DNA of 64,000 bases from a virus (lineage: Duplodnaviria; Heunggongvirae; Uroviricota; Caudoviricetes). Where the stretch lies: positions 287,171 to 351,170 of IMG/VR virus record IMGVR_UViG_3300028833_000001. One strand, written 5' to 3'. The position numbers and the translations under genes are program-made. This document shows, piece after piece, positions 12,715-56,394 of the stretch; the first letter of the stretch is position 1, and every line of letters starts with the position of its first letter. The notes under the pieces were generated by a model that made no database searches, was not told where the DNA came from, and was given only the letters and a program-made list of their open reading frames with translations.

Positions 12715-13791
12715 ATGGCTAGAATATTTAGTTGGAAAATAACAAACGGTAAGTACGCCTATCTTGTTAAAGATGAGGAAAATAACACTTATATTAGAAA
12801 TAGAATAAACGACAGCCTTACATTATTGGCTTTTTCAAAAACAATTTTAGGCTTTAGTGAAAATCAATATATGGCTGAATATAATAACCTAAGGAATGAA
12901 GTATTAAGCCTTTACGGGAAAGATATTGGTAGTGATTATAGCGTATATTATGATACTGGAGAAGATGGAGGCTCTAACAGGCTAATACTTTTAACTGGAA
13001 AAGATGGTGAAAATGCAAGTAGTGTACAAAACAATAATGGAGTCATATCTAATAATGATTATGAGACTTTATCTAGTATTATAGACACCAGAATTGACGA
13101 ATATCAAGAAAGGGAAAATTTGTTACGAGACGATGTTAAGGAATATATTGAAGCTTCTATAGGCTCATCAGTGTCAAATGCTATGGAAAATATAATTGCG
13201 ACAAACGCAAGACTAGATGCATTACAATTAGAAGTTAATGATGTCATATCCAACGACTCTGATATAATTAATGCAATTGATGTTTTTACTGGCGCAACGC
13301 AAAACAATATGGCAACACTTTTGTCAGACACAACTGCGTTGAAAGGTTGGATGAATGATTATAGTGGAAGTATCAGTGGAATTGTTCATGATTATAATGA
13401 GGCAAATTATACAATTGGTTCTATGGATGGGGCCAACCCTTCTAGTGGCTTATTCGCCAATATTGGAACATGTTTCAACAAATTAAACAATAAAATAGGT
13501 AAAGTTGAATCTCAATGCTATGAATTATCTGGCACTGTAGAAACTATAAGAAAACCTATATCGAACGATGATATAACTCAAATATTATCTTCAAAGTCTG
13601 TAATAAATAAAGATTCGTGCGTGCAGCAATTATCTTCAGAAGATGGGATTGTTTTTAAATATAGCGACAACGCTTTTATGTCGTTTTTGAGCGGCGAAAT
13701 AACACTACAATCTGGCGATTATGGACTGAAAATAACTAATGATGGTATTTTTGTAAGAAAAAAAGGTGGTGATTACATAAAACAAAAATAG
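12715..13791 (+). CDS. hypothetical coiled-coil tail/fibre-associated protein
   Basis: 358 aa with a heptad-like centre and a beta-rich C-terminus. Ends at TAG followed by a terminator. Confidence 0.5.
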   Translation: MARIFSWKITNGKYAYLVKDEENNTYIRNRINDSLTLLAFSKTILGFSENQYMAEYNNLRNEVLSLYGKDIGSDYSVYYDTGEDGGSNRLILLTGKDGENASSVQNNNGVISNNDYETLSSIIDTRIDEYQERENLLRDDVKEYIEASIGSSVSNAMENIIATNARLDALQLEVNDVISNDSDIINAIDVFTGATQNNMATLLSDTTALKGWMNDYSGSISGIVHDYNEANYTIGSMDGANPSSGLFANIGTCFNKLNNKIGKVESQCYELSGTVETIRKPISNDDITQILSSKSVINKDSCVQQLSSEDGIVFKYSDNAFMSFLSGEITLQSGDYGLKITNDGIFVRKKGGDYIKQK

Positions 13792-13801
13792 AATAAAAAA
13801 T

Positions 13802-13834
13802 GCGTGGCAAATAAAATGCCACGCTTGTTTTTTT
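13802..13834 (+). terminator. intrinsic terminator
   Basis: Hairpin GCGTGGCA-aataaaa-TGCCACGC followed by a T-run. Confidence 0.85.
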
Positions 13835-52610: not shown

Positions 52611-52691
52611 TGTCATTTTGACGTATTAAATGTCAATTTGGCACATAAGCATGACAAAATGCCATAAATTTAAATTGGCATGATGTTTGCA
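52611..52691 (+). promoter_or_regulatory. sigma-54 (-24/-12) promoter with upstream TGNCA-n3-TGNCA boxes
   Basis: TTGGCATGATGTTTGCA at 52675-52691. Boxes TGTCATTTTGAC, TGTCAATTTGGCA and TGACAAAATGCCA lie upstream. Confidence 0.65.
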
Positions 52692-52709: not shown

Positions 52710-52782
52710 GGTGCCGTTAGCTCAGTGGGTAGAGCGCATGTCTGTGGAACATGAGGCGTTGGTTCAAATCCAACACGGCACC
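52710..52782 (+). tRNA. trnH: tRNA-His(GTG)
   Basis: Cloverleaf with G-1/C73 and anticodon loop CTGTGGA. Confidence 0.95.
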
Positions 52783-52794
52783 CGAAAAAAAAAG

Positions 52795-52852
52795 TTTGGA
52801 AGTTTAAAAAAAGATTTGTAATCTTACAAACACAAACGAGAGTTCTTTGAAA
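52795..52852 (+). promoter_or_regulatory. Bacteroidota-like promoter (TTTG...TAATCTTAC) plus boxA-like GTTCTTTGAAA
   Basis: A near-identical arrangement recurs at 53611-53643 and 53736-53747. Confidence 0.5.
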
Positions 52853-52865
52853 AAATTGAAATATA

Positions 52866-53310
52866 AAGTGATTGTGAGAATGATAGCAAAACAACTATCA
52901 TGCATAGGCGAGAAATCCCTATGTAGAATCTCCTAAATTCGGTAGAATCCTTAAAGGCGTTAGCCTTCGTAAGAGAGAAAATATGTAACCTCACTAAACA
53001 ATAATGTGGAAGGACTAACCGAGCGAAAATGTAATGCGGAATTTCAATAAGTTAGGAAGATATTACATAATCGTGTAGAGGCCAAACGGGAGATACCTAA
53101 GTTGGAATTTGTATAATTGAGGGATAGCGCAAGCAAGTATGTTTTCTTTTAACAGTTAACAGAACAATCAAATTATACATCTTGCAAGAATTCCAATATG
53201 GTAAGATGGTCCAGGCCACAACAACACTACAAGCAGTGTCGAAACCAGACATAAGTACTGTTGTAACAAAGTGTTGGCTATGATAACATAGTGTGGCATC
53301 ACAATTACTT
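52866..53310 (+). ncRNA. group I intron-like RNA, free-standing (no exons found)
   Basis: P3 ATCTCC/GGAGAT, P4 TTCGG/CCGAG, P6 CGA/TCG, P7 GAGGCCA/TGGTCC, P8 TACC/GGTA and P9 GCCAC/GTGGC. Closed by a terminal helix AAGTGATTGTGA/TCACAATTACTT. Confidence 0.75.
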
Positions 53311-53316
53311 TTACTT

Positions 53317-53389
53317 GCGCCCGTAACTCAGCTGGTAGAGTACATCCCTTTTAAGGATGGAGTCGTGGGTTCGAATCCCACCGAGCGCA
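53317..53389 (+). tRNA. trnK: tRNA-Lys(TTT)
   Basis: Cloverleaf with CATCC-CTTTTAA-GGATG. Confidence 0.95.
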
Positions 53390-53416
53390 CAATAATAAAT
53401 TTAAAATTATAATAAA

Positions 53417-56291: not shown

Positions 56292-56361
56292 CGGGATGTA
56301 GTTTAATGTTAAAATAATTGTGCTTAGGACAGTGATATAGGTGCGAATCCTATCATCTCGG
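56292..56361 (+). tRNA. Pro-like tRNA paralog with non-canonical anticodon loop (GCTTAGG)
   Basis: Body nearly identical to the next tRNA-Pro and with the same 3' trailer CAAATATTTCATA. T-loop is TGCGAAT. Confidence 0.5.
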
Positions 56362-56394
56362 CAAATATTTCATATAGTATAAACATAATAGCAT

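Follow-up and report, generated by a model that had tools for sequence, protein, structure and literature searches.

A group I intron-like RNA in a jumbo phage is very probably an exon-less, non-splicing descendant of phage tRNA introns and may serve another use

We analysed a group I-like RNA encoded on the plus strand at positions 52865-53311 of the window, a 64,000-nt stretch that comprises bases 287171-351170 of a 361-kb IMG/VR jumbo-phage record rated complete by CheckV. The window RNA has a complete group I core, with helices P2-P9, the P3/P7 pseudoknot and the G-binding G-C pair. Judged from its sequence, it very probably descends from a group I intron of a phage tRNA gene and has lost both its exons and the ability to splice. 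The case that it is kept by selection for some use and expressed as a stable RNA is, in our assessment, evenly balanced. The preliminary description of this DNA had proposed a group I scaffold devoid of exons and clear splice sites, which the fold, the homologues and the lost splice features bear out; the descent from a large phage tRNA-intron family goes beyond it.

The RNA is found at the beginning of a 9-kb tRNA array (26-29 genes), between tRNA-His (52711-52783) on its 5' side and tRNA-Lys(UUU) on its 3' side (Table 1). Both flanking tRNAs are intact and ARAGORN, run with introns allowed, found no host tRNA around the RNA, in agreement with the earlier observation that it interrupts neither a tRNA nor an open reading frame. 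Genes near the array encode a fused DHFR-thymidylate synthase, a primase-like protein and HNH-type endonucleases, and the host of this jumbo-phage group is probably a member of the Bacteroidota. The array also contains an ARAGORN-called tRNA (56292-56362) whose UUA anticodon could make it an ochre suppressor. The tRNA-Lys of the window (53317-53390) has no insert, unlike its orthologue in contig L003 (about 13675-13822), which carries a ~74-nt insert that starts with ATACAG and contains a T-arm-like hairpin.

Table 1. Features of the window RNA and its immediate surroundings, in window coordinates.
Feature	Position	Strand	Remarks
Putative promoter region	52795-52830	+	TTTG ... AGATTTG; overlaps a 16-nt inverted repeat; conserved in L003 and L286
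boxA-like leader motif, GTTCTTTGAAAA	52842-52853	+	Exact 12-mer occurs once in the 64-kb window; 12 nt before the clamp helix
Terminal clamp helix	52865-52877 with 53299-53311	+	13 contiguous bp, one G.U
P1-position hairpin, sealed	52880-52901	+	7 Watson-Crick pairs; A-U at the place of the introns' U.G splice pair
P2 hairpin	52902-52924	+	90% paired across 60 homologues; 6 of 7 pairs covary
P3 5' strand to P4 3' strand (including J3/4, P4, J4/5, P5, J5/4)	52928-53023	+	
P3	52928-52933 with 53089-53094	+	93% paired
P4	52938-52943 with 53018-53023	+	95% paired
P6 and P6a extension	53024-53073	+	7 covarying pairs within the family
J6/7 (UGUA), P7 5' strand, J7/3, P3 3' strand	53074-53094	+	Bulged A and G-binding G in P7
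P7	53078-53084 with 53207-53212	+	90% paired; 3 covarying pairs
Extended P8	53095-53202	+	98-99% paired
J8/7 (AAGA, 4 nt), shortened	53203-53206	+	Followed by the P7 3' strand to 53212
P9.0, P9 and P9b hairpin	53215-53297	+	95%, 83% and 99.7% paired, respectively
P9.0	53215-53219 with 53293-53297	+	
One linker base and clamp 3' strand, no omega-G	53298-53311	+	L286 has the same tail
tRNA-Lys(UUU), intact	53317-53390	+	Starts 6 nt after the clamp helix

The fold of the window RNA exceeds chance. Every string that had been quoted for the group I core was found at its place, and the fold is backed by covariation across 60 homologues. Folded as a single sequence, the RNA gave z = -4.05 with none of 100 shuffles equally stable; the minimum free energy structure yields the terminal helix, the P1 hairpin, P2 and P8, and the centroid adds P3, P4 and P5. 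We then projected the helices, with P7 as a pseudoknot, onto an alignment of 60 sequences, in which the MAFFT alignment of the periphery is unreliable and counts were taken from core columns only. Here 87.0% of the cells were paired, compared to 37-42% with slid partners, 38 of the 70 pairs change on both sides, and none of 500 shuffles reached the observed values on any measure. P7 occurs in three compensated versions among the window RNA, L003 and the metagenome orthologue L286. The G-binding pair had been reported as kept, and it is: the column is G-C in 54 of 57 alignment rows and the pair is present in the window RNA next to the bulged A. J6/7 (UGUA) is that of all 47 tRNA introns used for comparison, and P5 consists of an extension plus a conserved P5b hairpin. 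A 9-nt palindromic bulge on the 3' strand of P8, UCUUGCAAG (53180-53188), is invariant in all 60 rows and could be a dimerisation or docking site.

The helix that was said to join the two ends is present, although it measures 13 bp with one G.U rather than 12 bp. In a tRNA, this place at the intron ends would be taken by the anticodon stem. A homologous helix in L003 has one compensated pair (U-A to C-G). When taken alone this helix is weak evidence, with 20 of 300 shuffled tails doing as well. The same comparison for the leader/tail duplex of other exon-less copies gave 0 of 300 for L081b, 10 of 300 for L060 and no significance for the rest, as the comparison discriminates weakly on AU-rich sequence such as this.

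Relatives were retrieved from IMG/VR contigs with an exact 17-mer from P7/P3' and two degenerate core patterns. This yielded more than 130 distinct copies in jumbo-phage contigs, many of them 100-400 kb long. Sixty-nine relatives lie inside tRNA genes of many specificities, as introns of 340-750 nt (ARAGORN, introns allowed), and in such members the 5' exon ends in a stretch that pairs, through a U.G, with a guide immediately 5' of P2, and a terminal G precedes the 3' exon. A profile built from 47 tRNA-embedded introns, with no exon-less copy included, matches window positions 52900-53298 (nhmmer; E = 8.8e-46, 151 bits, profile positions 13-342 of 345). The window RNA is therefore homologous to genuine phage tRNA group I introns.

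The covariance-model check suggested in the preliminary description came out negative: neither with the gathering score as cut-off nor with E values up to 10 did Rfam detect a group I RNA in the window, and at the region of the RNA it matched no family other than tRNA. A 193-nt minimal relative in a tRNA-Ser matched the Rfam model RF00028 along its whole length with a score of 24.7 bits (E = 2e-4; cut-off 50), and longer true tRNA-intron relatives likewise fell below the gathering score. Since true tRNA introns also miss this score, the RF00028 model is insensitive to the phage tRNA-intron family. A blastn search of INPHARED phages gave no match, and a scan with the pattern ATATGGTAATNTCAGT, which proved too unspecific, returned mostly chance matches and no further exon-less members.

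Several family members have unusual settings. L161 and L082 seemingly interrupt a protein-coding frame instead of a tRNA, with a canonical U.G P1 and an omega-G. The true tRNA intron in L051/L052/L065 has C-G, not U.G, in P1 at the predicted splice site, which recalls the C(-1) type (bioRxiv 10.1101/2020.01.27.920355). In L146, L137, L139, L170, L171 and L173 the group I core stops at P7' and is followed immediately by a tRNA-like RNA whose anticodon loop is unusual; this architecture lacks P9 and has a conserved CAGCCCCTAACAA motif upstream. L109 encodes a phage tmRNA (5509-5910, 107 bits) just downstream of the tRNA-Ser that bears the minimal intron. Family debris occurs as well: L166 and L167 hold full introns followed by only the 3' half of tRNA-Arg and adjoining an intact tRNA-Arg, and L142, L158 and L162 hold truncated cores inside tRNA arrays.

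The window RNA departs from working introns at its splice sites and catalytic junctions. The guide column holds U and the omega column C, at positions where 45 of 47 tRNA introns each have G, in keeping with the reported lack of a U.G splice pair and an omega-G; a C-G pair with a guide is likewise missing from P1. J8/7 measures 4 nt, whereas all 47 tRNA introns and all four half-tRNA or ORF copies have 7 nt. The described shortening of this junction thus holds, with the correction that it amounts to 3 nt relative to the RNA's own family and not about 2. J5/4 has 3 nt compared to 4 nt in 47 of 47 tRNA introns, and J4/5 (AGAA) begins with A where 46 of 47 begin with G. The P9b loop (L9b) reads AUAA instead of the family GNRA, with G changed to A at 53283. 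Altogether 6 of 48 conserved junction positions are changed. Because there is no host tRNA, guide and omega are lost, J8/7 is short and P1 is sealed, splicing by the standard route is excluded for the window RNA on these grounds.

Copies that lack a host gene are the minority in the family, about 10 in number. Nine of these, from seven contigs, are in the alignment (the window RNA, L003, L150, L164, L084, L060, L132 and two in L081); L286 is a tenth exon-less copy and the third orthologue of the window type. J8/7 is 4-5 nt long in eight of the nine, in at least two sequence versions, and the AAGA of the window RNA recurs in L286. The homologue comparison proposed earlier accordingly bears out the short J8/7 as a shared trait; for the terminal helix it gives the homologous pairing in L003 and otherwise weak pairing statistics. 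The 48 junction positions are unpaired, with conservation in 90% or more of the tRNA introns; exon-less copies depart from them at 3-9 and tRNA introns at 0-2 (mean 0.4). Of 70 pairs, 52-70 are canonical in exon-less copies, with an intron mean of 59. Random decay of the core, raised in the preliminary description as the contrary outcome, was not seen; helices are kept and changes are concentrated in catalytic junctions. The window RNA falls within this subclass by its missing host gene, its short J8/7, its excess of junction changes, its boxA-like leader and its leader/tail pairing, which is statistically weak when taken by itself.

Three of the exon-less copies (L132, L084, L060) sit among protein genes, outside tRNA arrays, as stand-alone units with a hairpin directly after each; in L132 and L060 a hairpin and T-run lie directly 3' of the RNA. 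Complementarity between the 5' guide region and either the 3' tail or a 3' hairpin loop recurs in several copies, with weak statistics. Among them are L150, L164 and L060, in which the guide strand complements the loop of a 3'-tethered hairpin and the omega-G is kept; the loop in L150 and L164 carries CUCAUA, the tRNA-Met anticodon-loop sequence. The complete genome of the window RNA holds one family copy (nhmmer, filters off). The records of L003, L081, L132, L150 and L060 contain exon-less copies only and no true intron, the L060 record being complete with terminal repeats. Hence in-genome gene conversion cannot maintain the exon-less copies, nor can these RNAs be helpers for sister introns.

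In a tree of the core, six exon-less copies form a clade with local support of 0.86, and the joining of the window RNA to this clade has support of 0.39. The window RNA and L003 have long branches and are not sisters despite their shared synteny. The elements are recombinant mosaics, so the window RNA cannot be placed with confidence. Of 43 positions in its P5 extension, 42 match a true tRNA intron in L091; the P9 extension matches a true intron of L066 at 38 of 40. L286 combines a leader and P8 of the L003 type with J8/7 and tail of the window type, and L003 lacks P9b altogether. Because of this recombination, neither the tree nor arguments based on intact helices in the periphery carry much weight.

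An own promoter and boxA had been claimed for the RNA. A boxA-like 12-mer does lie just upstream, and the promoter comes down to a resemblance of TTTG ... AGATTTG to the consensus -33/-7 boxes of Bacteroidota. A scan for E. coli-type promoters gave 5 sites compared to 3 expected. A boxA-like leader precedes six of the nine aligned exon-less copies, and the motif lies 11-46 nt upstream of P2 in those of L060, L075/L003, L081 (both) and L132. The motif is also found inside the P1 loop of true introns of the tRNA-Met(CAU) type (L095, L106, L113, L116), and the boxA of exon-less copies may for that reason be inherited and not dedicated. In L164, a TAnnTTTG box that we take to be a promoter lies ~20 nt before P2; from this position the transcript would start at the guide, leaving no room for a 5' exon. 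Boxes of the boxA kind follow sigma54-like promoters (TGGCAC-N5-TTGC) in L053, L110 and L112, and a similar sigma54-like site lies upstream of the window tRNA-His (about 52676-52691).

We considered whether the window RNA might still act as a ribozyme. An ordinary cis-splicing intron with exons that form a small non-tRNA hairpin RNA would fit the pairing of the flanks, which resembles an anticodon stem around a tRNA intron. We judge this highly improbable given the missing U.G pair and omega-G and the short J8/7; nor is there a recognisable exon RNA, as ARAGORN finds no host and Rfam nothing that spans the RNA. A trans-acting splicing ribozyme that removes the short inserts of tRNAs in the array, as proposed in the preliminary description, is just as hard to credit. 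The RNA does share its array with insert-bearing tRNAs, whose inserts are too short to self-splice and have no known mechanism of removal. However, its guide is locked in the 7-bp P1 hairpin and the active-site strand J8/7 is truncated. The one insert checked, in tRNA-Arg(CCU), ends in C and lacks an omega-G, of the window and L003, which share the RNA, only the latter has an insert in tRNA-Lys, and exon-less relatives occur outside tRNA arrays. With no guide and an insert that ends in C, we also rejected the idea that the short inserts are degenerate group I pieces served in trans by the window RNA.

Self-processing, by G-dependent or hydrolytic cleavage that might for instance release the downstream tRNA, is improbable but has more in its favour. 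The G-binding pair and bulged A are intact, L150, L164 and L060 combine an omega-G with a guide complementary to their tethered 3' hairpin loop, and C at -1 occurs in a bacterial tRNA intron type (Williams, bioRxiv 10.1101/2020.01.27.920355). Against it, a Watson-Crick hairpin seals the guide of the window RNA and puts A-U where cleavage would occur, the omega-G is lost, J8/7 has 4 nt and J5/4 3 nt, and RNase P alone can release the tRNA. Self-cleavage is more plausible in relatives that keep the guide G and omega-G than in the window RNA, for which it is unlikely.

A further possibility is that the RNA is a neutral relic: the tRNA lost its exons, the intron body decays slowly and owes its transcription solely to its place in a tRNA operon, and its helices look intact through repeated re-import, by recombination, from functional introns of co-infecting phages. 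We consider this rather doubtful. In its favour, all catalytic determinants are lost, with the changes at 6 of 48 junction positions and the lost GNRA of L9b, and the branches are long and mosaic. Together with the loss of P9b in L003, the loss of the GNRA loop resembles relaxed constraint. True introns elsewhere have P5 and P9 modules at 95-98% identity; given this closeness, selection in place need not be the reason for the intact helices, which may instead have been imported recently. The family also leaves debris (half-tRNA introns, truncated cores), and a boxA can derive from intron P1 loops. On the other side, what speaks for retention by selection is that the window RNA, L003 and L286 keep full length and all core helices at ~20% flank divergence, and that the RNA persists in single copy in complete genomes that have no donor intron. 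The same junction, J8/7, was shortened in separate lineages with the helices spared, and relatives such as L132, L060 and L084 are stand-alone units. Finally, the recognisable relics of the family (L142, L158, L162) are truncated and not of full length.

Under retention by selection, the window RNA would be transcribed from its own promoter through the boxA leader, and the order of boxA, processing stem, structured RNA and tRNA would resemble the layout of an rRNA operon. RNase P presumably cleaves at the 5' end of tRNA-Lys(UUU), and this cut, 6 nt downstream, would free the 3' side of the RNA; the tRNA-Lys context probably sets its 3' end. The RNA would then persist as a stable folded molecule without splicing. 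Selection might keep the folded scaffold as a retired ribozyme that serves as a binding platform or decoy, and the intact guanosine pocket would be its only recognisable ligand site. With this pocket preserved, the G/GTP-binding RNA and the non-catalytic scaffold raised in the preliminary description may each apply. We tentatively propose, at slightly less than even confidence, that jumbo phages carry genes for retired group I ribozymes that are independently transcribed, present in single copy and selected for a non-splicing use, be it binding, decoy or altered chemistry in a rebuilt active site.

Group I introns are the textbook example of selfish ribozymes. We know of almost nothing on the fate of group I folds after the loss of splicing, apart from the lariat-capping ribozyme. 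Ornate P5, P6, P8 and P9 extensions give the window RNA about double the size of Azoarcus-type introns. The closest known family is that of the bacterial tRNA group I introns (Williams, bioRxiv 10.1101/2020.01.27.920355). They have the same core fold, and the window RNA is directly homologous to phage introns at these sites, with the clamp replacing the anticodon stem. It differs in having no tRNA, U.G pair or omega-G and a J8/7 of 4 nt, not 7, and does not splice by the standard route.

The lariat-capping ribozyme (GIR1) of the Didymium and Naegleria twin-ribozyme introns (reviewed in PMC3679873) is the closest functional precedent, as the one accepted group I ribozyme that gave up splicing for another job. 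Like the window RNA it has a group I-like core, with a rebuilt active site in GIR1, and no splicing exons. Unlike the window RNA it belongs to eukaryotes, where it sits within a further intron, upstream of the gene for a homing endonuclease, and it is defined by helices and a branching site of its own; the window RNA has no Rfam match beyond tRNA and no enclosing intron, and is followed by a tRNA. IStrons (PMC4227781) are bacterial group I ribozymes that share with the window RNA a position outside the classic conserved-gene setting. In contrast to the window RNA, they still splice and keep P1 and the omega-G. The c-di-GMP-controlled group I ribozyme of Clostridioides difficile also stands in a non-classic setting, still splices and keeps P1 and the omega-G. 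ROOL and GOLLD are large structured non-coding RNAs of unknown function that are often found beside phage tRNAs; their folds are unrelated to the window RNA, where Rfam gave no match to them even at E up to 10. Our literature search, of incomplete coverage, returned no description of exon-less group I RNAs in phages, so their absence from the literature is not proven.

These data point to a large family of phage tRNA introns that is missed by the Rfam gathering score. The exon-less RNAs of 0.4-0.6 kb and their intron relatives are invisible to standard pipelines, and phage tRNA genes are therefore under-called. The recurrent exon-less class, with its coherent changes of the active site, provides a natural system for asking about the re-use of ribozyme scaffolds. 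If our proposal is true, retired phage ribozymes would join the lariat-capping ribozyme as the second natural example of a repurposed group I ribozyme, with none before them in viruses or bacteria.
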